A stretch of 64,000 nucleotides of DNA from a virus. This document shows positions 15,223 through 27,885 of the stretch, one piece after another. Location of the stretch: IMG/VR virus record IMGVR_UViG_3300032316_000329, positions 64,001 through 128,000 of that record; one strand, written 5' to 3'. The notes beneath the pieces were generated by a model that saw only the letters and a program-made list of their open reading frames with translations, searched no databases and was not told where the DNA came from. A program made the translations under genes and the position numbers. The stretch's first letter is position 1. Each line of letters starts with the position of its first letter.

Positions 15223-15884
15223 TGGCCAACACAGTAATCCAATTAAAGAAATCTGCGGTACCAACAGCACAACCGAATGCGGGGTCGTTAGCTAATGGTG
15301 AACTTGCTATTAACTATGCTGACGGTAAACTCTTCTATAAAGATTCCTCAGGCCTTATACAACAAATTTCTAGTGGTGGTAATACATTTTCTACCATCAA
15401 TGCTGCTGGTACATTGCTTGTTTCAGACTTACCTGGTGATATTCTAACAATTGACCAAGGTGATAATATCATCATTGTTCCTGAACCACTTAATGATAAA
15501 CTAACTATTTCGGCCAATCTATCGCCTGCCAACAATTACGCCGGGGCTATGGCCAACTCGGTCAATGCCTACACATCAACAACATATTCTACACTAACAC
15601 AATTTGGTTCTGTATTTGGTGTTGCTAATGCAGCGTTTGATAAGGCTAATACAGGATCAACAAATGTAAATACGTTTTCGTCTATTGCTGTTGCTGGTCA
15701 AGGTACCATATTAGCCTCATTGGAAGATACTCTAAACTTATCAGATGGTAATGGTATAAATATACAGACAGATCCGGTTACAAAAACAGTTTCATTTGGT
15801 ATAGTGCCAGGTACATATTCGGGAGATTACGGATTAATAACAGAACCGGTTAATATGATACACGACTACGGGGGTCTAGGATAA
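15222..15884 (+). CDS. Fibre-associated protein
   Basis: VIQLKKS..P...L..GELAINYADGKLFYKD N-terminus; two FS.I...G..DTL.I..G.NI.I repeats; ends DYGLI..DYGGL. Confidence 0.7.
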   Translation: MANTVIQLKKSAVPTAQPNAGSLANGELAINYADGKLFYKDSSGLIQQISSGGNTFSTINAAGTLLVSDLPGDILTIDQGDNIIIVPEPLNDKLTISANLSPANNYAGAMANSVNAYTSTTYSTLTQFGSVFGVANAAFDKANTGSTNVNTFSSIAVAGQGTILASLEDTLNLSDGNGINIQTDPVTKTVSFGIVPGTYSGDYGLITEPVNMIHDYGGLG

Positions 15885-18499
15885 TGTCCGTTCAGGTACA
15901 AATAAGAAGAGGTAATACAGCTCAAACTTCGGCATTTACCGGTGCTGTTGCTGAAATTACCGTCGATACAGATAAACAAACATTAGTTGTTCATAACGGA
16001 TCAAAGTCTGGTGGATTTCCTCTTGCTCCTAATACCGCTTTTGATGTCGCCAATGCTGCTTTCAACTCCGCAAACAATGTAGCACCTCAGGTTGCCCCCT
16101 CTTTTAATACTGCTAATGCTGCCTTTGATAAGGCCAATTCGGCCAATGTCCTTGCCTATAATACAGGTATTGGTGCAAATGCTTATACTGTATCCGTAGG
16201 TTCATCCGGTAATAATTATGCTGGTGCTATGGCCAACAGCATTAACGCATACACTACTGCCACTTATGCTACTCAAACAGATTTAAGTACCGGTCTCTCT
16301 GCTGGTAATACTTATACAGTTTCCGTTGGAACGAGTGCTAATAATTATGCAGGCGCAATGGCGAATGCCGCCAATGCATATGCAACGGCAACTTACGAAA
16401 CTCAAATTGTAGTATCAACCGGTCTTGCTTCTGGTAATGCTTATGCTAATTTTGTTGGAACGTCAGCAAACTCTTATGCCAATACTTCTACGGAAGCGGC
16501 AAATAACTATGCCGGATTTATGGCAAACGCATCCAATGCCTATGCTGCTTCATTAACACCAGATTTATCTCCGGCATTTAACAAGGCAAACGATGCCTAT
16601 ACACAGGCAAATGCTGCCTATTCCCATGCCAATGATGTGGCAACAGGTGCCAATGCCTATTCCGTTTCTGTTGGCGCCGCTGGTAATGCTTATGTTAATC
16701 TATCTACTGGTGCTGCAAATTCTTATACCGTAACAGTCGGTACATCTGCCAATAATTATGCCGGTGTTATGGCAAACTCAGCAAACGGAATTGCTGATGC
16801 TACTTACATCAAAAAAACTGCAACTACACAGATAATAACCGGTGATATACAGATTACTGGTAATTTGATACTATCTGGTAATGCTACCCAGATTTCTGCT
16901 AACAATCTGTCTATCCAGGATCCTCTTATATTCCTTGCCACAAACAATATCAGCGACATTGTTGATATTGGATTTATAGGTCATTATAACAATGGTTCCG
17001 CAAACGTTCATACAGGTGTCTATAGAGACCACGCATCTAAAGAATATTATATATTCAATGGTCTATTCGGTGAACCAGAACTAGTCAATGATATTGTTCC
17101 ATATGCTAACAATATGGTTAACGCCGTTCTTAATGCTGATTTAAGAACCAGTAATCTAAATCTTGGTGGTGCTAATGCTATTGTTTGGATTAGATCAGCA
17201 TATGATAACTCTAATGCTGCGTATAACAATGCTAATTCAATTGCCACTTCTGCCAATAATTATGCAGGAGCAATGGCTAATGCGGCTAATGCTTATGCAT
17301 CGTCTTTAACGCCAGATTTAACTCCAGCATTTAATAAGGCAAACGATGCCTATACTATTGCTAACGGAGCATTTGATAAGGCCAATTCTGCCAATGTTCT
17401 TGCTTATAATACAGGAATTGGTAGTAATGCTTATACTAATGTAGTAGGAACATCCGCAAATAACTATGCTGGTGCTATGGCTAATTCTGCCAATGCATAT
17501 GCTCTTTCATTAACACCAGATTTATCTCCTGCTTTTAATGTTGCTAATGGAGCCTTTAACAAGGCAAACTCTGCTAATGTATTGGCCAAGGCAGCATATG
17601 ATTATGCTAATACAATTACAGGCGGTGCTGTTGTTTCAGCAACAGCACCTTCATCACCTTCTGCGGGTTCATTTTGGTGGAATACTACTTATGGTAGACT
17701 ATTTGTTTATTACAATGATGGTAATACATCTCAATGGGTTGATGCTACTGCTACTGCTACTGCTGCAAGAGTAGTAACTACTGATACCGTACCAAACGGT
17801 GCGGTGGACGGACAACTTTGGTGGAACTCAGAATACGGTAGATTGTTTGTCTATTATAATGACGGTGATACTAGTCAATGGGTTGACACCAATCCTGCTA
17901 CGGATATTGGTGGTATAACGGACATTGCAAATGCTGCTTTTGATAAGGCTAATACAGGTGCCACCTTTGCTTATGTAAATACTTCTGCGGCCGCAGCAAA
18001 TGCTTATACCAATGTTTCAACAGGTGCTGCTAATGCTTATACCAATGTTTCAACAGGTGCTGCTAATGCTTATACCAATGTTTCTACGGCCGCGGCAAAT
18101 AATTGGGCAAACACAAAATTAGCAAACACAAATGTCGTCCTTGCTGGCAATTTAACATCTACACAAGGTGTTGCTGATAGGATAGGTGATGTAAGAAACT
18201 TACCAATTGTAAATCAAACATCATCATATACACTAACACTTGCTGATAATGGTGAGGTTATTTCTTTAACAACTGGTAACGTTTTTGTTACTGCTGGCAT
18301 ATTTTTTCCAGGTAATACTGTTTCTGTGTTTAACAATTCATCGGCAAATATAACCATCACACAGAATACCAGTGTTACATTGTATTCCGCTGGTACTTCT
18401 AATACTGGTAATAGAATCTTGCAGCAAAGAGGTATTGCTACAATCGTTTGCGTTGCTGCAAATACATTTGTTGTTACAGGTGCGGGTATGGTTCCATGA
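15884..18499 (+). CDS. Long tail fibre protein (Mtd-N-like N-terminus, Asn/Ala shaft, two WW..GRL.YY.DG..QWV modules)
   Basis: VQIRRG.T.....FTGA.AEITVDTDK..LVVH.G...GG.PLA; SANNYAGAMAN repeats; C-terminal YTL...DNG..I domain. Confidence 0.75.
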   Translation: MSVQVQIRRGNTAQTSAFTGAVAEITVDTDKQTLVVHNGSKSGGFPLAPNTAFDVANAAFNSANNVAPQVAPSFNTANAAFDKANSANVLAYNTGIGANAYTVSVGSSGNNYAGAMANSINAYTTATYATQTDLSTGLSAGNTYTVSVGTSANNYAGAMANAANAYATATYETQIVVSTGLASGNAYANFVGTSANSYANTSTEAANNYAGFMANASNAYAASLTPDLSPAFNKANDAYTQANAAYSHANDVATGANAYSVSVGAAGNAYVNLSTGAANSYTVTVGTSANNYAGVMANSANGIADATYIKKTATTQIITGDIQITGNLILSGNATQISANNLSIQDPLIFLATNNISDIVDIGFIGHYNNGSANVHTGVYRDHASKEYYIFNGLFGEPELVNDIVPYANNMVNAVLNADLRTSNLNLGGANAIVWIRSAYDNSNAAYNNANSIATSANNYAGAMANAANAYASSLTPDLTPAFNKANDAYTIANGAFDKANSANVLAYNTGIGSNAYTNVVGTSANNYAGAMANSANAYALSLTPDLSPAFNVANGAFNKANSANVLAKAAYDYANTITGGAVVSATAPSSPSAGSFWWNTTYGRLFVYYNDGNTSQWVDATATATAARVVTTDTVPNGAVDGQLWWNSEYGRLFVYYNDGDTSQWVDTNPATDIGGITDIANAAFDKANTGATFAYVNTSAAAANAYTNVSTGAANAYTNVSTGAANAYTNVSTAAANNWANTKLANTNVVLAGNLTSTQGVADRIGDVRNLPIVNQTSSYTLTLADNGEVISLTTGNVFVTAGIFFPGNTVSVFNNSSANITITQNTSVTLYSAGTSNTGNRILQQRGIATIVCVAANTFVVTGAGMVP
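17999..18084 (+). repeat. 33-bp tandem repeat (~2.6 copies)
   Basis: AATGCTTATACCAATGTTTCAACAGGTGCTGCT repeated (NAYTNVSTGAA). Confidence 0.9.
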
Positions 18500-19476: not shown

Positions 19477-20033
19477 TGAAAGATTTGAAAGTCACATTAG
19501 ATTTAAATACAGAACAATGGTGGATTGAAAATATACAGGACTTCAATCCAATCACAGAAGTTTTGTTCAATGTTAAACAAATAAACAAAGAAACTGTTTT
19601 CAACAATCTGAAGTTCGGTTTTACTTTAAAACTCAATGATATCATCATACAATCAATTAGCGAACCATCTGAAGGAATAACATATATCTCTTCTGATCAA
19701 GATTACTTAAAATCAATACCTATTAATGTTATCTACAACAGAGAATACGTCATTGACTTGTGGGTAGAAAACGATGGTAAGAGATATGAAAAATCTCATT
19801 ATATTACAACTCCTAAACCGGAACAACCATTCAATTCTTGGACATGGAATGAACAGTATGAATACTGGGAAGCACCGATAGCAAAACCAGAAAATCAACC
19901 AACTTATGTTTGGAGTGAAGATTCTAAAATGTGGGTACCACCTTTGAATTTAGATATGAAAACACCTGAAAATGCTATATGGAATCCTTCAACCAATCAA
20001 TGGGAGATATTGCCTGATTATGATCTCACATGA
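19476..20033 (+). CDS. Fibre-associated protein with Trp repeats
   Basis: PKP..PF.SWTWNE...WEAP..P....Y.W.E...W motif commonly found beside Gly-rich phage adhesins. Confidence 0.65.
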   Translation: MKDLKVTLDLNTEQWWIENIQDFNPITEVLFNVKQINKETVFNNLKFGFTLKLNDIIIQSISEPSEGITYISSDQDYLKSIPINVIYNREYVIDLWVENDGKRYEKSHYITTPKPEQPFNSWTWNEQYEYWEAPIAKPENQPTYVWSEDSKMWVPPLNLDMKTPENAIWNPSTNQWEILPDYDLT

Positions 20034-20208
20034 TGCAAACACTACTTTTTTCTTAACCAAAGAAGAAGCACAAGAGAGATATAACATTTGTAAGCAATGT
20101 GATAGTTTTATACCTTTAACATCACAGTGTAAAGAATGTGGTTGTCTCATGAAAATAAAAGCAAAGATTAGAAATTCCGACTGTCCATTATCAAAATGGA
20201 AAAACTAA
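20020..20208 (+). CDS. Small Cys-rich (probable Zn-binding) protein
   Basis: ERY.IC..C....QCKECGC.M..K.....CP..KW; ATG 20020. Confidence 0.7.
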   Translation: MISHDANTTFFLTKEEAQERYNICKQCDSFIPLTSQCKECGCLMKIKAKIRNSDCPLSKWKN

Positions 20209-20232
20209 ATACTACAAACAAGTAGAGATTAA

Positions 20233-21237
20233 ATGGCAAAAATTAATTTTCCAAGTTCGCCAACTAATGGCCAAACATTCAATCAAAACGGAGTGTATTA
20301 TACATACGACTCTACTTTTGGTGCTTGGGTAACTGCTCTCGTTCCTAAACCTTTGGATAATAGCAGAAACACACAAATTATCTTTAATGATGCCACTTAT
20401 GCCAATGGTTCTAACGGTATGACTTTTAGTAAGTCTGCCAATACGGCATACCTTGCCAATGTAGCAGTTACACAGAATGTTTATGCCAACTATTTTATAG
20501 GTAATGGTGCCGCACTAACAGGTATTGTTACAGACTTTTCGCCAGCTTATAATACCGCTAATGGTGCCTATAATGTTGCCAATGGTGCCTATACGACCGC
20601 TAACGGTGGATATAATGTTGCCAATGCGGCCTTTGGCAGGGCCAACACCGCATTACAGAACACCTCAGGTACCGTATTTACTGGAAATTTCTTTGTTGCC
20701 AATAGCGTTGGTGTTGGTAGATCAACCACTGGTTATGCTCTTGATGTTGTTGGTACAGTTAATGCTTCGGCACTACTTATTAACGGAGCAGCCTTATCAG
20801 GTGGTGCCACTGTTTCCGATCAAACAACTTCCGCATCAACATTCTATCCTGTAATTACAACCACAACTAGTGGTACAATGTCTGTTGCGAATGTTTCAAC
20901 TACCAAACTCTACTTCGTTCCATCTACCGGTACATTATCAGCAACGGTGTTCAACTCATTATCCGATATCACATTAAAGACTGATATTGAAGAGATTAAC
21001 GGAATAGAACTAATAAATAAGATAAACCCAATAGGTTTCAGATGGAAAGAGAATGGCACAAAGTCTTATGGTGTTATTGCTCAGGAACTGGAACAAGTAT
21101 TGCCGGAGTTGGTTCAGACCAATGAAGGCCTTAAATCGGTTTCTTATACTCCTATGATTGCTATGTTGATTGATACTGTTAAGAAACAAGAAAAACGAAT
21201 AGAAAAACTTGAACAATTATTAAGTAATCAAAAGTAA
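20233..21237 (+). CDS. Tail fibre with C-terminal intramolecular chaperone (peptidase S74)
   Basis: FPSSPTNGQ N-terminus; SD..LK.DI...F.WK...YGVIAQELE.VLPELV..V.Y..M...L..K; late promoter CTAAATA 20205-20211. Confidence 0.85.
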   Translation: MAKINFPSSPTNGQTFNQNGVYYTYDSTFGAWVTALVPKPLDNSRNTQIIFNDATYANGSNGMTFSKSANTAYLANVAVTQNVYANYFIGNGAALTGIVTDFSPAYNTANGAYNVANGAYTTANGGYNVANAAFGRANTALQNTSGTVFTGNFFVANSVGVGRSTTGYALDVVGTVNASALLINGAALSGGATVSDQTTSASTFYPVITTTTSGTMSVANVSTTKLYFVPSTGTLSATVFNSLSDITLKTDIEEINGIELINKINPIGFRWKENGTKSYGVIAQELEQVLPELVQTNEGLKSVSYTPMIAMLIDTVKKQEKRIEKLEQLLSNQK

Positions 21238-21248
21238 CGGAATAAGAT

Positions 21249-22406
21249 ATGCCAAATTTTAATAGTCCAGAAGGCGAACTAACTGATCTGTTTATGACGG
21301 ATGTAAGTATCCTGGATAGTTTTGTTGGTAATGAGTTGTGGGGATGGGGACGTAATGGTTATGGACAACTTGGTGACAACACAAGAACCAAAAGATCCTC
21401 ACCAGTCCAGACCGTATCTGGTGGAACCAACTGGAAGTTCGTTGCTTGTGGTTTTAATTACACCACTACCATTAAAACAGATGGAACGTTGTGGTCGTGG
21501 GGAGGAAATAGTTATGGTCAACTAGGTGATAACTCCAGAACCCATAGATCCTCTCCAGTCCAAACTGTATCTGGTGGTACCAATTGGAAACTAGTTGCTT
21601 GTGGTAGTTATCACACCACTGCCATTAAAACAGATGGTACCCTTTGGACCTGGGGTCAGAGTATTTATGGTCAACTAGGTGATAACTCAACAAACAATAG
21701 ATCCTCACCAGTCCAGACCGTATCTGCTGGTACAAATTGGAAACAAGTTGCTGGTGGTTTCAATCACACCACTGCCATTAAAACAGATGGTACATTATGG
21801 ACATGGGGAGGTAATGGTTATGGTCAACTAGGTGATAACTCAACAACCAGTAGATCCTCACCAGTTCAGACCGTATCTGCTGGTACCAATTGGAAACAGG
21901 TTGCTTGTGGTCAACACACTGCCGCCATCAAAACAGATGGTACATTATGGTTGTGGGGACGTAATGAATACGGTGCACTAGGTGATAATACAACAACCAA
22001 TAGATCCTCACCAGTCCAAACCGTATCTGGTGGAACCAACTGGAAACAAGTTGCTGGTGGTATTTACCACACCGCTGCCATTAAGACTGATGGAACCCTT
22101 TGGACCTGGGGATATAATACTGACGGTCAACTAGGTGACAATACAACAACCGATAGATCCTCACCAGTCCAAACCGTATCTGGTGGTACCAACTGGAAAC
22201 AGGTTGCTGGTGGTCGGTTTAACACTGCTGCCATTAAAACTGATGGTACATTGTGGGGATGGGGACGTAATACTGACGGTCAACTAGGTGATAACTCCAT
22301 AACCCATAGATCCTCACCGGTCCAGACTGTATCTAGTGGAACCAACTGGAAACTGGTTGCTGGTGGTAGTTATCACACTGCTGCCGTAACCTATACAGAA
22401 TCATAA
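21249..22406 (+). CDS. RCC1/BLIP-II-like 7-repeat beta-propeller protein A
   Basis: Seven ~51-aa repeats LW.WG.N..GQLGDN....RSSPVQTVS.GTNWK.VA.G..HT.AIKTDGT. Confidence 0.9.
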   Translation: MPNFNSPEGELTDLFMTDVSILDSFVGNELWGWGRNGYGQLGDNTRTKRSSPVQTVSGGTNWKFVACGFNYTTTIKTDGTLWSWGGNSYGQLGDNSRTHRSSPVQTVSGGTNWKLVACGSYHTTAIKTDGTLWTWGQSIYGQLGDNSTNNRSSPVQTVSAGTNWKQVAGGFNHTTAIKTDGTLWTWGGNGYGQLGDNSTTSRSSPVQTVSAGTNWKQVACGQHTAAIKTDGTLWLWGRNEYGALGDNTTTNRSSPVQTVSGGTNWKQVAGGIYHTAAIKTDGTLWTWGYNTDGQLGDNTTTDRSSPVQTVSGGTNWKQVAGGRFNTAAIKTDGTLWGWGRNTDGQLGDNSITHRSSPVQTVSSGTNWKLVAGGSYHTAAVTYTES

Positions 22407-22423
22407 TAAGAGGAAACAAAAAG

Positions 22424-23089
22424 ATGTTTGTAATCGTTCAAGACAATTTTGTAATAGATGGACCAAGGGATTGGAACAAGAAGAAGTTTGAAGAAGTTCT
22501 TTTAGAAGATTGTGAAGTAGATTTCACACTTGAAACCAGAAACGAATCCAACCTTCCAATCGTTGTTTCCGACACTGTTAAGATTCTTCCGGTAACCAAA
22601 CTTCCTGATCCAGTATTTAATTCCAAGACACAGATTCTTCAAGGGCCATTCTGGAACCTATCAGACACATTGGCCGAAGAATATTACACCGCGCAAGATA
22701 TGCCAGTGGATGCTGTTAAGAACTTTCTTACCTCTATTGTTGCTAATGCTCGGTATATTAAAGAAACTGCTGGTATTAAAATGACTATTCAAGGAACTCA
22801 GGTTTCTGTTGATACTGCTCGTGGTTCAAGAGATATATTCTTTCAGGCATTTTTATCTATTGGTGAAACTGAAACAATGAACTGGAAGTTTCCTGAGACC
22901 TGGTTAGAACTCACAAAGAGTGATCTGGGTTTGATTGTTTCTGCGGGTCGTAACCATATTCAGACATCTTTTGATTGGGAGAATGGTTGGGTCAATAGAG
23001 TTAGTGCTGCTGTTACATTGAATGATCTTAATACACTTTATAATGAACTGGAAGCGGAATTAAAACCACAGACAAATCCAACAGTATAA
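22424..23089 (+). CDS. Tail-fibre-associated protein (DUF4376-like C-terminus)
   Basis: VA.ARY.KE..G......V.T.R.SR....NWKF...W..LT..DL..I......HIQ..FDWE. Confidence 0.7.
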   Translation: MFVIVQDNFVIDGPRDWNKKKFEEVLLEDCEVDFTLETRNESNLPIVVSDTVKILPVTKLPDPVFNSKTQILQGPFWNLSDTLAEEYYTAQDMPVDAVKNFLTSIVANARYIKETAGIKMTIQGTQVSVDTARGSRDIFFQAFLSIGETETMNWKFPETWLELTKSDLGLIVSAGRNHIQTSFDWENGWVNRVSAAVTLNDLNTLYNELEAELKPQTNPTV

Positions 23090-23098
23090 GGTCGTATA

Positions 23099-24316
23099 AT
23101 GGCATATGGTTCAAATACAAATTATACTATTAGTGGTGTTGATGTAGGTAGACAACTTGTAACTAAAAGTTACTTGATTGATGTTTATCCATCTTTGGTT
23201 GGTACGTTTAAACAGGCAGGGTTATGGACCTGGGGGCGTAATGGTGCCGGTCAACTAGGTGACAATACAACAACCGGTAGATCATCTCCAGTTCAAACTG
23301 TATCTGGTGGTACAAATTGGAAACTGGTTGCTGGTGGTGGTTATCACACTGCTGCCATTAAGACTGATGGAACCCTATGGACCTGGGGAGGTAATTCTTA
23401 CGGTGCACTAGGCGACAATTCAACAAACTTTAGATCCTCACCAGTCCAGACTGTATCTGCTGGTACAAATTGGAAACAGGTTGCTTGTGGTTTTTTTCAC
23501 ACTGCTGCTATTAAGACTGATGGAACGTTATGGTTATGGGGAGATAATAGAAACGGTCAACTAGGTGACAATACAACAGCCCATAGATCCTCTCCAGTCC
23601 AAACTGTATCTAGTGGAACTAACTGGAAACTGGTTGCTAGTGGTCGTTATCACACCGCTGCCATTAAAACCGACGGAACCCTTTGGACCTGGGGAGCTAA
23701 TTATTCCGGTCAACTAGGTGACAATTCAACAAACCGTAAATCCTCACCAGTCCAGACCGTATCTGGAGGAACCAACTGGAAACTGGTTGCTTGTGGTGGT
23801 TTTCACAATGCTGCCATTAAAACTGATGGAACCCTTTGGACCTGGGGAGCTAATTATGCCGGTAATCTAGGTGATAACTCAATAACCAGTAAATCCTCAC
23901 CAGTCCAAACCGTATCTACTGGTACAAATTGGAAACTGGTTGCTGGTGGTAGTAGTCACACCTCTGCCATTAAGACTGATGGAACCCTATGGACCTGGGG
24001 ACATAATGGTTACGGTACACTAGGTGATAACTCCAGAACCCATAGATCCTCACCAGTCCAGACCGTATCTGGAGGAACCAACTGGAAACTGGTTGCTTGT
24101 GGTGGTTTTCACAATGCTGCCATTAAGACTGATGGAACCCTTTGGACCTGGGGATTTAATGCTTACGGTGCACTAGGTGATAACTCCGAAACCCGTAGAT
24201 CCTCACCAGTCCAAACCGTATCTGGTGGAACCAACTGGAAACAAGTTGCTGTTGGTGGTTATTACACTGCCTGTATCCGTGACGATTCAGCAGACATTTT
24301 CGGAAACACTATATGA
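23099..24316 (+). CDS. RCC1/BLIP-II-like 7-repeat beta-propeller protein B
   Basis: Seven 51-aa repeats as in protein A; distinct N-terminal leader. Confidence 0.9.
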   Translation: MAYGSNTNYTISGVDVGRQLVTKSYLIDVYPSLVGTFKQAGLWTWGRNGAGQLGDNTTTGRSSPVQTVSGGTNWKLVAGGGYHTAAIKTDGTLWTWGGNSYGALGDNSTNFRSSPVQTVSAGTNWKQVACGFFHTAAIKTDGTLWLWGDNRNGQLGDNTTAHRSSPVQTVSSGTNWKLVASGRYHTAAIKTDGTLWTWGANYSGQLGDNSTNRKSSPVQTVSGGTNWKLVACGGFHNAAIKTDGTLWTWGANYAGNLGDNSITSKSSPVQTVSTGTNWKLVAGGSSHTSAIKTDGTLWTWGHNGYGTLGDNSRTHRSSPVQTVSGGTNWKLVACGGFHNAAIKTDGTLWTWGFNAYGALGDNSETRRSSPVQTVSGGTNWKQVAVGGYYTACIRDDSADIFGNTI

Positions 24317-24819
24317 TCCATCCTCTTGTGAAGATTATAACCATTGATGGTTTTTTTAGTCAAGAAGAGGCCACCAGATTAGGTGAAATAACCAGAAACC
24401 TTCAATACACTCAAAACCAATTAGGTCAAGAGATAGAACATTTCAATATGGTTCCAGAAAACGCCAATGAAATGTTCTCTTTCATTCTAAATACAAAGAT
24501 AGAGGTGGATGAAGATCGTTCAGGTATATTCAGAAAGCCAGAGTTATTCATACACTTTGAGGAATTTGATACTCTTGATGAATGGGTTTTTGTTTGTGTT
24601 CTGGAACATACTATGTTTAATATATATCAGCACGAAAGCGGTGCCAAGAGTGCTTTGGATGGGTATCAGTTTAATTACAGGAACCTTATGGAATGGGGTT
24701 CTAATACAAAAGTTTCCTATGAACTATTGCCTGGAGAAGGCGTTCTGTTTAGACCGTGGTTGTTTCATTCGTTTAGTGGTGGTTTAATTCAGATATTCAG
24801 ATTAAAAGAGAGAGAATAG
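24313..24819 (+). CDS. Putative 2OG-Fe(II) oxygenase-like protein (DUF6445-like)
   Basis: IID.FF..FIHFE..H..SG....W...GVLFRPWLFHS. Confidence 0.6.
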   Translation: MIHPLVKIITIDGFFSQEEATRLGEITRNLQYTQNQLGQEIEHFNMVPENANEMFSFILNTKIEVDEDRSGIFRKPELFIHFEEFDTLDEWVFVCVLEHTMFNIYQHESGAKSALDGYQFNYRNLMEWGSNTKVSYELLPGEGVLFRPWLFHSFSGGLIQIFRLKERE

Positions 24820-25971
24820 ATGCCAACTTTTTATCAGGTTAACGGTGTATCGTTTGATGATCTGTTTGTAAGAAATGATTCATTCACAGAAGGTGGGTTG
24901 TGGACCTGGGGAAATAATGGTCTGGGTGAATTAGGTGATAACTCCAGAACCCATAGATCATCTCCAGTCCAAACCGTATCTGCTGGTACAAATTGGAAAC
25001 AGGTTGCTGGTGGTGGTAATCACACCGCTGCCATTAAAACTGATGGAACATTATGGTTATGGGGTAGTAATTTTTTTGGCCGATTAGGTGACAATACACA
25101 AACCGATAGATCCTCACCAGTTCAAACTGTATCTGCTGGTACAAATTGGAAACAGGTTGCTTGTGGTGGTACTCATACCGCTGCCATTAAGACTGACGGA
25201 ACCCTATGGACATGGGGACGTAATTATAATGGCCGATTAGGTGACAATACAACAACCGATACAACCTCACCAGTCCAAACCGTATCTGCTGGTACAAATT
25301 GGAAACAGGTTGCTTGTGGTGGTAATCACACCGCTGCCATTAAGACTGATGGAACCCTTTGGACCTGGGGACGTAATACTAACGGTCAACTAGGTGATAA
25401 CTCTTTAACCCATAGATCCTCACCAGTTCAAACTGTATCTGGAGGAACCAATTGGAAACAAGTTGCTGGTGGCGATAGTCATACTGCTGCCGTTAAAACT
25501 GATGGAACATTATGGATGTGGGGAGGCAATAGTTATGGTCAACTAGGTGATAACTCTTTAACCCATAGATCCTCACCAGTTCAAACTGTATCTGCTGGTA
25601 CAAATTGGAAGTTTGTTGCCAGTGGATATTATGCACATACTGCTGCCATTAAGACTGATGGAACCCTATGGACATGGGGACGTAATAATTTCGGTCAACT
25701 AGGTGATAACTCTTTAACCCATAGATCCTCACCAGTTCAAACTGTATCTGGTGGTGCCAATTGGAAACAAGTTTCTTGTGGTCGTTTTTACACAACTACC
25801 ATTAAAACTGATGGAACCCTGTGGACATGGGGACGTAATAGTTATGGTCAACTAGGTGATAATACAACAACCGGTAGATCATCACCAGTCCAAACCGTAT
25901 CTGCTGGTACAAATTGGAAACTAGTTGCTTGTGGCACTTATTTTACCGTCTCCATCCGAGATCAGTGGTAA
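24820..25971 (+). CDS. RCC1/BLIP-II-like 7-repeat beta-propeller protein C
   Basis: Seven ~51-aa repeats as in protein A. Confidence 0.9.
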   Translation: MPTFYQVNGVSFDDLFVRNDSFTEGGLWTWGNNGLGELGDNSRTHRSSPVQTVSAGTNWKQVAGGGNHTAAIKTDGTLWLWGSNFFGRLGDNTQTDRSSPVQTVSAGTNWKQVACGGTHTAAIKTDGTLWTWGRNYNGRLGDNTTTDTTSPVQTVSAGTNWKQVACGGNHTAAIKTDGTLWTWGRNTNGQLGDNSLTHRSSPVQTVSGGTNWKQVAGGDSHTAAVKTDGTLWMWGGNSYGQLGDNSLTHRSSPVQTVSAGTNWKFVASGYYAHTAAIKTDGTLWTWGRNNFGQLGDNSLTHRSSPVQTVSGGANWKQVSCGRFYTTTIKTDGTLWTWGRNSYGQLGDNTTTGRSSPVQTVSAGTNWKLVACGTYFTVSIRDQW

Positions 25972-25980
25972 TTTACAAGA

Positions 25981-25987
25981 CTAAATA
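25981..25987 (+). promoter_or_regulatory. Late promoter heading the modification-enzyme operon
   Basis: Intergenic CTAAATA. Confidence 0.6.
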
Positions 25988-26020
25988 CCAAAGTTAGACA
26001 ATTATTTTATGAGGGTTGTT

Positions 26021-26566
26021 ATGATAAAGTTGAACCTTGGTTCTGGTTACAAACATATTGATGGTTATCTAAATATTGATTCGGATCCAAAGTGTAATCC
26101 AGATCACTTACTAAACCTTGAAACCGACAGACTTCCCTTTGATGATAACACGGTAGACGAAGTTCTCTGCCACCATATTCTAGAACACATTGGTGATGGT
26201 TTCATTCATTTAATGAAAGAAATCTACCGAGTTTGTAAAAACGGTGCTATACTAGACATAGCAGTTCCACATCCCAGGCACGATGTTTTCCTCATAGACC
26301 CCACTCATAAACGGCCAATCTACTCTGATACTATTGATATGTTCTCTAAAAAAAGGAACCAAAAAACTATTGAAAATAAAGGTATGGAAACAACTCTTGG
26401 TATAATGAATGACATTGACATAGAAGTATTTGCCACTGACTATGTTCTTGATGAATACTATCAAAAACTCTTTCAAACATTACCAAACGAACAATGTGAT
26501 ATAATTGCTCGGTCTTATAATAATGTTATTATTGAAATCCTAATCAAGGCAATGGTGAATAAGTGA
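26021..26566 (+). CDS. SAM-dependent methyltransferase (type 11-like)
   Basis: KLNLGSG..GYLNID..LPFDDN.VDE....HILEH..KEIYRV.K.G...I.VP..DPTH; ATG after GAGG. Confidence 0.85.
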   Translation: MIKLNLGSGYKHIDGYLNIDSDPKCNPDHLLNLETDRLPFDDNTVDEVLCHHILEHIGDGFIHLMKEIYRVCKNGAILDIAVPHPRHDVFLIDPTHKRPIYSDTIDMFSKKRNQKTIENKGMETTLGIMNDIDIEVFATDYVLDEYYQKLFQTLPNEQCDIIARSYNNVIIEILIKAMVNK

Positions 26567-27885
26567 CAGTAGAATATCCAAACTGTGATCCTCTCGGAAC
26601 TGCCAAGTTTTTTATCAATTTAAAACAACCTGAAAAGGCCAAAGTTTCCCTTGATCAAGTAAAACCATATTGTCAGACAGTTCAACAGTTAGATGCTATT
26701 GGCAAACTCTATGCTGATTGTAGAGAATGGAATGATTCTCTTGAAATTGCCAAGAAGATTCATTCCCTACTTCCAAACAATCAATCCAAATATGATATTA
26801 GAACAAATATTGTTCGTTCTTTACTCAATTTAAACAATCCAGAAGAAGCACTAATTTATATCAATATGAATGAAAAGGTGAATCCAAACGATCATCCTAA
26901 TCGTATGGATAAAGCAATGGCTTTATTTCTACTAAACAAAAAAATAGAAGCCGAAGCAATACTGCGACAAATATTAGAAGAACCACATAATGATGATATT
27001 GACACAAGAGTAAAATTTAATCTAGGAACCTATGACATTAGAAATGGTAATTTTAAAGATGGTATCAAAAATTTTCTTCTTCACGGTAGAAAGTTAAATA
27101 TATGGGAGTCATATACTCTTCCGAAAAATAATTATTGGAAAGGCGATATACAACCTGGTAAAACTATTCTGATGTGTCACGATGGTGGTATTGGTGATGA
27201 AATAATCAATATAAGGTTTCAGAAACACATTAAAAAACTTGGTATGAATCCTATTTGGTTTACAGCAAGAAAAGACCTGGCTAAAGTCTTTGAAAGAAAT
27301 GGATTTACTGTAACAACAAATCCTAATGATTATAAATCTGATTGGTTGTGGTATTATTCAATGACTTCGCCAGTATTGCTTGATGTTGATGAGAATGACT
27401 TGTGGGATGGTCCTTATATAGAACCAATCAGAAAAGCAGAGAAACTTTCTGGTAAATTAAAGATCGGCCTAAAATGTGTTGGTAATCCAAAATATGATCA
27501 GGATCTAAACAGAACAGTTCCCTATAAAGAAGTTCTTGATATTTTACCAAAAGATGCGACGGTCTATTCATTTCATATTGACGAAGATATTGATGATCCT
27601 AGATTGATATCTCTTAAAGATAAGATCAAAACTTGGGACGATACGCTTGACTTTATAGATCAAATGGACTATATGATATCTAGTTGTACCTCAACAGCAC
27701 ACGCGGCATCTGCTATGGGTAAAAAGACTTTTGTTATGGTTCCTATCCTTAATTATTACCTTTGGGCAAAACCAGAAAACCACTCAAAGTGGTATTCGGA
27801 AAATACCAGAATAATCAGACAAACAACATATAAAAATTGGTATGATCCGATCAAAGAGTTGAAAGAACTCCTCAATGGTCAATAG
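26563..27885 (+). CDS. TPR-containing GT-B glycosyltransferase (GT9/heptosyltransferase-like; FlmG/FlbA-type architecture)
   Basis: Helical TPR-like N-half; W.G...GKTIL...GGIGD.I..R and D..IS.CTS.AH.A.AMGK.T.V...W..SKWY...R..RQ...W motifs. Confidence 0.8.
   Translation: MTVEYPNCDPLGTAKFFINLKQPEKAKVSLDQVKPYCQTVQQLDAIGKLYADCREWNDSLEIAKKIHSLLPNNQSKYDIRTNIVRSLLNLNNPEEALIYINMNEKVNPNDHPNRMDKAMALFLLNKKIEAEAILRQILEEPHNDDIDTRVKFNLGTYDIRNGNFKDGIKNFLLHGRKLNIWESYTLPKNNYWKGDIQPGKTILMCHDGGIGDEIINIRFQKHIKKLGMNPIWFTARKDLAKVFERNGFTVTTNPNDYKSDWLWYYSMTSPVLLDVDENDLWDGPYIEPIRKAEKLSGKLKIGLKCVGNPKYDQDLNRTVPYKEVLDILPKDATVYSFHIDEDIDDPRLISLKDKIKTWDDTLDFIDQMDYMISSCTSTAHAASAMGKKTFVMVPILNYYLWAKPENHSKWYSENTRIIRQTTYKNWYDPIKELKELLNGQ

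Follow-up and report, generated by a model that had tools for sequence, protein, structure and literature searches.

The 64,000-nucleotide stretch of DNA analyzed here (hereafter the window) comprises bases 64001–128000 of the 165,114-bp IMG/VR virus record IMGVR_UViG_3300032316_000329, which is estimated to be 99% complete and derives from a lake phage. It contains three same-strand open reading frames (ORFs) built of RCC1-type repeats, here designated RCC1-A, RCC1-B and RCC1-C (385, 405 and 383 residues, respectively), whose coordinates were as given in a preliminary description made from the sequence alone. The probable explanation, in our judgment, is that these genes code for stand-alone, seven-bladed RCC1-like tail-fibre propellers with a variable binding face, diversified by mutation, selection, blade-to-blade copying and exchange of whole propeller bodies. 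The preliminary description had pointed to an antibody-like repertoire, produced by repeat shuffling and possibly by a diversity-generating retroelement (DGR) with a remote template. The shuffling was confirmed, the retroelement was not, and the repertoire was found across the phage family: within one genome there are three fixed binding surfaces.

Three paralogues with seven repeats of about 51 residues each had been described, and coordinates, Pfam and motif anchoring agreed on this organization. Pfam recognized seven RCC1 (PF00415) stretches per protein (245–266 bits versus a cut-off of 21.7), the WD40_RLD/RCC1-like-domain model (PF25390) matched at 276–326 bits (cut-off 150), and anchoring on the W.WG motif also gave seven repeats per gene, of ~51 residues and with a spacing of 50–52. 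At the DNA level, Tandem Repeats Finder reported a period of 153 bp with 81–82% matches. All 21 RCC1 matches in the whole genome fell within these three genes. With the first W of W.WG numbered as column 0, six columns per blade (4, 6, 7, 17, 38 and 39) were hypervariable, with an entropy of 2.0–3.0 bits and 5–10 different residues per column (7–10 if column 39 is left aside); about ten further columns were moderately variable and thirty were nearly invariant. The site after WG held exactly the ten residues listed earlier (R, G, Q, Y, D, A, H, F, N and S). The repeats had also been called near-identical, which is correct for the protein scaffold but not for the DNA, which was ~84% identical outside the hypervariable codons (dS ~0.46).

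AlphaFold2 was used to model RCC1-A. One of five models, the best one, was confident (mean predicted local distance difference test score 81.8, predicted template modelling (TM) score 0.83) and contained 28 strands, corresponding to 7×4. The top solved structures retrieved by Foldseek were UVR8 (TM-score 0.83, 31–32% identity), the RCC1-like domains (RLDs) of HERC1 and HERC2, and RCC1, with TM-scores of 0.80–0.85 to UVR8, HERC2 and RCC1, which supports a predicted seven-bladed beta-propeller. In the model, columns 4–17 form a long loop after the WG strand (WG-x-N-x-x-G-x ... T-x-T-x-R), and columns 37–39 a short loop two strands later (G-x-x-H). Since columns 4–17 and 38–39 are in alternate loops of a four-strand antiparallel meander, they should lie on the same face, and by the same loop parity the invariant SGGTNW and TDG loops should lie on the opposite one. 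Homology pointed in the same direction. In a phmmer in-register alignment to UVR8, calibrated on the W285F chain, columns 6 and 7 corresponded to E43 and D44, columns 4 and 6 to W94 and D96, column 17 to D107, and columns 38 and 39 to W233/R234, W285/R286 and W337/R338. In the UVR8 dimer, the two monomers are linked by salt bridges of R286 with D96/D107 and of R338 with D44/E43 (PMC5091643). All six hypervariable columns therefore align with residues of the UVR8 dimer interface, a known protein-interaction face, and with a single face. When the variable sites are mapped onto the predicted propeller in this way, the proposal of a constant scaffold that displays a single variable face for binding is upheld by both the modelled loop parity and the alignment. 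Each blade would contribute six hypervariable and two to four moderately variable residues to this face, so that each propeller may present a composite surface of ~42–56 variable residues rich in Tyr, Asn, Ser, Gly and Arg.

The preliminary description had drawn attention to codons ending in T or C (NNY) at the variable sites, and its counts were reproduced: 78 of 84 codons were NNY at columns 4, 6, 7 and 17, and column 7 of RCC1-B (before GQL) always ended in C (GCC, TAC, AAC, TCC, GCC, TAC and TAC). CGT accounted for 12 of 14 variable Arg codons and AGT for 11 of 13 variable Ser codons, versus AGA and TCN, respectively, in the scaffold. For all six hypervariable columns together, NNY was present in 117 of 125 codons, which exceeds the background (98.2±3.6 expected from the residues present and genome codon usage, z = 5.3; 57% NNY genome-wide), although these counts are not independent events because the blades have a common ancestry.

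The distribution of variation among codon positions suggested how this pattern arose. Nucleotide diversity at positions 1, 2 and 3 was 0.65, 0.58 and 0.245 in hypervariable codons, versus 0.047, 0.027 and 0.267 in scaffold codons. The third base of hypervariable codons thus behaves like a silent site (0.245 versus 0.267 in the scaffold), and positions 1–2 are near saturation. With the repeats aligned, the ratio of nonsynonymous to synonymous substitution (dN/dS, Nei-Gojobori) was 2.2 for the six hypervariable columns, 1.25 for the moderately variable columns and 0.06 for the scaffold, values that are rough for units that are paralogous and recombining and for hypervariable sites that are nearly saturated. 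Positive selection acting on homogenised repeats, which had been named earlier as an alternative to a retroelement, is therefore the reading favoured by both the diversity and the dN/dS tests.

The same features were found beyond the window. The hypervariable columns were the same in a set of 416 distinct units (66 loci), with an NNY fraction per column of 0.71–0.87. In 24 family genomes, third-base diversity of hypervariable codons tracked silent scaffold diversity (Spearman 0.79, slope 1.0), and positions 1–2 were saturated in every lineage examined. Residue composition was also distinctive: family-wide, Tyr, Asn and Ser accounted for 47% of hypervariable residues, and residues encoded only by NNY codons (Tyr, Asn, Asp, His and Phe) occupied 44% of hypervariable sites versus 23% genome-wide, whereas Lys, Glu, Gln, Met and Trp together made up 8% versus 20% genome-wide. 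For degenerate residues at these sites, the family-wide NNY fraction was 0.85 for Ser, 0.74 for Thr and 0.73 for Ala, versus 0.51–0.66 in genome usage. Arg at hypervariable sites was mostly AGA family-wide, and the CGT codons of the window are therefore a lineage trait. A third base inherited in the homogenised unit, combined with a paratope-like residue preference, would thus explain the NNY coding.

Evidence of homogenisation came from comparing the leaders that precede the propellers with the blades themselves. The leaders fell into three orthology groups, each with one window gene: the A-type (36 genes from 33 loci), the B-type (45 genes from 45 loci, with D15, K23, Y25 and Y30 invariant) and the C-type (38 genes from 34 loci). 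These groups, and a gene order that was kept despite neighbours only 24–59% identical, indicated that the three paralogues are old. However, all 18 full-length window units had their nearest neighbour within the window, and in a tree built on scaffold positions only (211 units, 12 genomes) these 18 units formed one clade, inside which blades of A, B and C intermixed (the gene label changed 6 times). The genome label changed 35 times on the tree versus 146–168 times in shuffles, and window units differed from each other by a silent scaffold distance of 0.27 and from those of other genomes by 0.52. Paralogues that are ancient by their leaders, yet form one clade by their blades, are the product of concerted evolution. 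Individual copying events could also be recognized, and the suggested repeat shuffling was thus seen as conversion tracts of 58–81 nt (Table 1). The tract common to blades B4 and B6 extended over 44 consecutive identical polymorphic sites, a length reached in none of 300 permutations, and for the patch common to C4, C5 and C6 the permutation P was 0.03–0.07 per pair.

Whole propellers appeared to move as well. For example, the B-type gene of related locus L081 resembled that of L056 over its first 60 nt (97% identical), and its remaining body was 100% identical to that of L068. Also, phages with 96%-identical leaders can carry bodies saturated at both silent and hypervariable sites. The L081 gene is a clear recombinant, and the observations together suggest that phages trade propeller bodies by recombination within or close to the leader. 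A blade-by-blade orthologous dN/dS between phages was dropped, because pairs of bodies showed either complete identity or saturation and carried no positional signal, including those with 96%-identical leaders.

Several other explanations of the variable face were considered. In a DGR, a reverse transcriptase would copy an AAY template repeat, mutagenise its adenines and write NNY codons into the blades. The NNY excess described above is real and speaks for such a process, and the 871-residue fibre protein encoded upstream bears an Mtd_N domain, with which the DGR target of BPP-1 also begins; however, Mtd_N is a fibre N-terminal module that is not diagnostic of DGRs, and in a genome without a reverse transcriptase it is therefore here only a fibre-attachment module. 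The genome, estimated as 99% complete, had no RVT_1 match, and in the records of 30 relatives, four of them at least 99% complete, no reverse transcriptase scored above the Pfam cut-off. The repeat unit used as a DNA query gave 19 matches, all inside the three RCC1 genes, so there is no template copy, and a genome-wide search for a reverse transcriptase plus a non-coding repeat copy thus found neither. Fifteen nucleotide columns were A in all 21 units and 25 were A in at least 19, including those of Asn5 (AAT in 20 of 21 units), which sits between hypervariable codons on either side. Columns 9 and 15 vary as NNA (CAA, GCA, ACA, GAA and CGA; and AGA, ACA, ATA, GAA, CAA and TTA), keeping the third-position A while non-A bases (C, G and T) change, which does not fit adenine-confined variation. 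Where relatives were more divergent at silent sites, hypervariable codons also varied freely at their third base. Besides, 84 pairs of RCC1 genes from related phages were identical between different metagenomes, and in the few near-identical pairs the differences lay in leaders or silent patches, apart from one change at a hypervariable site (L069 versus L073, column 17, GCA to TCA); there is no ongoing rewriting of RCC1 genes from sample to sample. To the extent that sequence can decide, the DGR or remote-template reading fails, and we give it hardly any credence. A targeted diversification process without reverse transcription, or second-order selection for evolvability, could also keep binding-face codons as NNY, which reach 15 amino acids through positions 1–2 and never a stop; the saturation of these positions in all lineages and the somewhat raised NNY of Ser, Thr and Ala would fit. 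These phages would then have arrived independently, and with no retroelement, at a coding logic like that of DGRs. We consider it very improbable, as the hypervariable third base acts as a silent site, Arg is mostly AGA family-wide, columns 9 and 15 are NNA, the genes are stable between samples, and a mild NNY excess is expected if new residues arise by position 1–2 changes from NNY-only neighbours. Simple lack of constraint is another option: the loops are surface-exposed, and the dN/dS estimates are rough and close to saturation. Neutral drift of this kind appears improbable, however, because diversity at positions 1–2 (0.58–0.65) was more than twice that at silent scaffold third positions of the same units (0.267), because of the strong composition bias, and because the same columns were hypervariable in so many distinct units and loci.

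A separate question is where the propellers act. The three genes are encoded in a tail-fibre module, with the Mtd_N fibre, a Gly-rich-domain protein, an S74 fibre and a DUF4376 protein as neighbours, and the flanking S74 fibre and DUF4376-like genes noticed earlier were both recovered as Pfam matches in this module, the latter at 24.8 bits, slightly below the 25-bit Pfam cut-off. The S74 protein matched many PHROG tail-fibre and long-tail-fibre distal-subunit families, and the DUF4376 protein matched PHROG 10508 ‘tail fiber protein’. Related loci encode single proteins in which the propeller is joined to collagen triple-helix repeats and an S74 chaperone (L027 and L039 in Table 1); these fusions tie the domain to fibres and suggest a role of the propellers in host recognition. 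These giant fibres of L039 and L027 also have an N-terminal domain, and each of their propellers is followed by an AIQxExDxxLLDQ-like motif. Alternatively, A, B and C may not be virion adhesins but may act inside the cell or after release, binding targets such as those of host defence or takeover and diversifying in an arms race, by analogy with BLIP-II or the Legionella RCC1-like effectors that bind host proteins. That they stand alone with very short leaders, that RCC1 faces serve generally as protein-binding platforms, and that the eleven RCC1-like paralogues of phAPEC6 have no assigned role (PMC7247149) would be compatible with this. We nevertheless regard it as unlikely, since the order of S74 fibre, RCC1, DUF4376 and RCC1 was kept across dozens of loci, the intergenic gaps suggest coupled translation, and the same propeller occurs in the collagen-like, S74-terminated fibres of relatives.

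Tail-fibre propellers diversified by ordinary mutation, selection and exchange thus remain the explanation we prefer, and several points weigh against it. A, B and C have only 27–42 non-propeller residues and no recognisable fibre-attachment domain, and both the location of the stand-alone proteins in the virion and their binding of a ligand are presumptive. The placement of variable sites on one face derives from loop parity and UVR8 homology, and not from model distances. The dN/dS of 2.2 is rough, coming from paralogous, recombining repeats near saturation, and could be inflated if silent sites are partly constrained. Finally, low-frequency variants within a population could escape notice in assembled consensus sequences.

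Within the preferred explanation, no dedicated mutagenic machine would be needed, as three ordinary processes would suffice. Point mutations at positions 1–2 of hypervariable codons would be fixed by diversifying selection. Conversion tracts of 58–81 nt would be copied among the 21 units, both within and between genes, which would move variable patches between blades and keep the scaffold homogeneous. Phages would also swap whole propeller bodies, recombining near the leader/propeller junction. The NNY third base would come down from the homogenised ancestral unit, having since changed at no more than the silent rate, on a binding face that favours NNY-only residues. The resulting surface would most likely bind a ligand on the host surface, and each virion would then have three specificities. 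The type-specific leaders are probably docking peptides for virion partners, and each would dock its propeller to a partner of its own.

Table 1. Features of the RCC1 locus and of related fibre proteins (window coordinates unless a related IMG/VR locus is named).
Feature	Coordinates	Strand	Description
Fibre protein, 871 aa, upstream	15884–18499		N-terminal Mtd_N domain; tail-fibre PHROG matches
S74 short fibre protein, 334 aa	20233–21237	+	Pfam PF13884 Peptidase_S74 at residues 244–294, C-terminal intramolecular chaperone; directly 5' of RCC1-A
RCC1-A	21249–22406	+	30-residue A-type leader (21249–21338), then predicted seven-bladed propeller
RCC1-A blade starts	21339, 21492, 21645, 21798, 21948, 22101, 22254	+	
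DUF4376 tail-fibre-like protein, 221 aa	22424–23089	+	Between RCC1-A and RCC1-B; Pfam PF14301, E = 3.2e-5
RCC1-B	23099–24316	+	42-residue B-type leader (23099–23224), then seven blades
RCC1-B blade starts	23225, 23378, 23531, 23684, 23837, 23990, 24143	+	
Conversion tract, blade B4	23740–23820	+	81 nt identical to blade B6 (24046–24126); includes columns 38–39
168-aa protein	24313–24819	+	Between RCC1-B and RCC1-C; 2OG-Fe(II)-oxygenase-like predicted fold
RCC1-C	24820–25971	+	27-residue C-type leader (24820–24900), then seven blades
RCC1-C blade starts	24901, 25054, 25207, 25360, 25513, 25669, 25822	+	
Patch common to C4, C5 and C6	25383–25442, 25537–25594, 25692–25751	+	58–60 nt identical; includes columns 9, 15 and 17
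L027 fibre protein, 1117 aa (related IMG/VR locus)	L027:4648–7998		Collagen repeats; one RCC1 propeller just before C-terminal Peptidase_S74
L039 fibre protein, 2445 aa (related IMG/VR locus)	L039:664–7998		27 blades in four groups between G-x-T collagen stretches; C-terminal Peptidase_S74

The genes of the RCC1 string (S74 fibre protein, RCC1-A, DUF4376 protein, RCC1-B, 168-aa protein and RCC1-C) were tightly packed in an operon-like manner, with gaps of −4 to 17 nt. The family gene order was S74, RCC1, DUF4376, RCC1, 168-aa protein, RCC1, methyltransferase and a 440-aa protein; 69 IMG/VR loci had the same order, and S74 followed by RCC1 was kept in most of them. The DUF4376 protein kept its position across the family at 24–46% identity, and the 168-aa protein did so in many relatives (29–58% identity). 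The latter gave no Pfam match above the cut-off, and structure comparisons in the ESM Atlas yielded TM-scores of 0.69–0.75 to the 2OG-FeII_Oxy_3, 2OG-FeII_Oxy_5 and DUF6445 families; on this modelled similarity it may be a 2-oxoglutarate (2OG)-Fe(II)-oxygenase-like protein, which we offer as a lead only. Such a protein might modify fibre or propeller proteins; in eukaryotes, JMJD5 hydroxylates an RCC1-domain protein. Immediately 3' of RCC1-C is a methyltransferase-domain gene (26009–26566), which together with the next gene, encoding the 440-aa protein, keeps its position in most relatives. Within the S74 fibre gene, a 21-bp tandem repeat (3.3 copies, 20548–20616) encodes a reiterated NTANGAY-like heptad. 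When the S74, DUF4376 and 168-aa proteins and three upstream ORFs were aligned together, no domain in common was found.

Outside the window, the genome carries a full-length pmoC/AmoC gene (positions 146363–147076 of the genome, E = 8.7e-110), which identifies it as a large freshwater pmoC phage, and the host of such a phage is presumably a methanotroph (methane-oxidising bacterium). Close relatives of this lineage were not encountered: a megablast search with positions 20000–27000 against GenBank phages gave zero matches, the 90% protein clusters of RCC1-A, -B and -C had one member each, an exact-protein look-up was empty, and a metagenome scan with the DUF4376 protein did not find a relative. 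Variation between samples was accordingly judged from near-identical gene pairs in other lineages. In a protein search, more than 7,800 longer relatives with several propellers scored at E ≤ 1e-20. For five longer multi-propeller homologues carrying extra precomputed families, a Pfam scan gave only RCC1 domains and sub-threshold noise.

The closest described parallel is found in fungi. The WD40 repeats of Podospora anserina HNWD and other fungal NOD-like receptors (NLRs) undergo concerted evolution within and between paralogues, with a few positively selected interaction-face residues per repeat, and owe their diversity to mutation supply, repeat reshuffling and selection (PMC1805685, PMC4986451). 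The phage proteins resemble them as beta-propellers of highly similar repeats that evolve in concert under diversifying selection at a few positions of one face. They differ in having 51-residue RCC1 repeats in place of WD40, in being part of a phage fibre module rather than a NACHT/HET immune receptor, in having six to ten variable positions per blade rather than four, in the absence of the fungal repeat-induced point mutation (RIP), and in the exchange of propeller bodies between genomes. Pfam gave only RCC1-type domains in A, B and C, with no NACHT/NB-ARC architecture of the STAND (signal transduction ATPases with numerous domains) type. The likeness to HNWD is thus one of evolutionary mode, not of family membership.

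Other comparisons were more partial. Arabidopsis UVR8, the RLDs of HERC1/HERC2 and human RCC1 share the predicted seven-bladed fold, and the hypervariable columns coincide with the UVR8 dimer/partner face; in contrast to these proteins, the phage propellers have no Trp chromophore cluster, no implied guanine-nucleotide exchange role, far higher blade-to-blade similarity and a phage context. The gp38 adhesins of T2/T6-type phages set host range by hypervariable segments between conserved glycine-rich motifs; gp38 is encoded by a small separate gene adjoining the distal fibre gene in T4-like phages, and attaches to the fibre tip. The small separate gene beside a fibre gene and the conserved framework with hypervariable loops are common to both systems. 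However, gp38 is a polyglycine sandwich and not a propeller, its attachment to the fibre tip is established while that of the RCC1 proteins is presumed, and three paralogues are present here. As in DGR proteins such as Mtd of Bordetella phage BPP-1, NNY-coded variable residues are carried on a stable scaffold at what would be a phage surface, with receptor binding presumed in the present case; unlike DGR proteins, the RCC1 proteins have no reverse transcriptase, template repeat or adenine specificity, have an RCC1 fold rather than a C-type lectin fold, and are stable between samples. The jumbo phages phAPEC6 (eleven copies) and GAP32 also have RCC1-like paralogues, for which a DNA-organising role was proposed (PMC7247149). 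By description alone, the likeness lies in several RCC1-like genes in a large phage genome, and that report describes neither a hypervariable face nor a fibre link.

Full-text literature searches did not find hypervariable RCC1 faces described for phages. One paper in which ‘RCC1’ occurred 26 times used it for strain numbers of the Roscoff Culture Collection. If the propellers are adhesins, they would be a major host-recognition scaffold of large freshwater phages that was not found so described. A rigid scaffold that tolerates ~50 variable positions on one face may also be a natural template for engineered binders. By analogy, the RCC1 genes are a phage analogue of the WD40 repeats of fungal NLRs, and a reading of them as a new diversity machine is not supported. 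If this explanation is true, receptor-binding diversity would be reached without a retroelement, through concerted blades, selection on one face, copying of variable patches and exchange of propeller bodies. Furthermore, with pmoC suggesting a methane-oxidising host, host-range determinants of this kind would bear on the viral control of methane oxidation.

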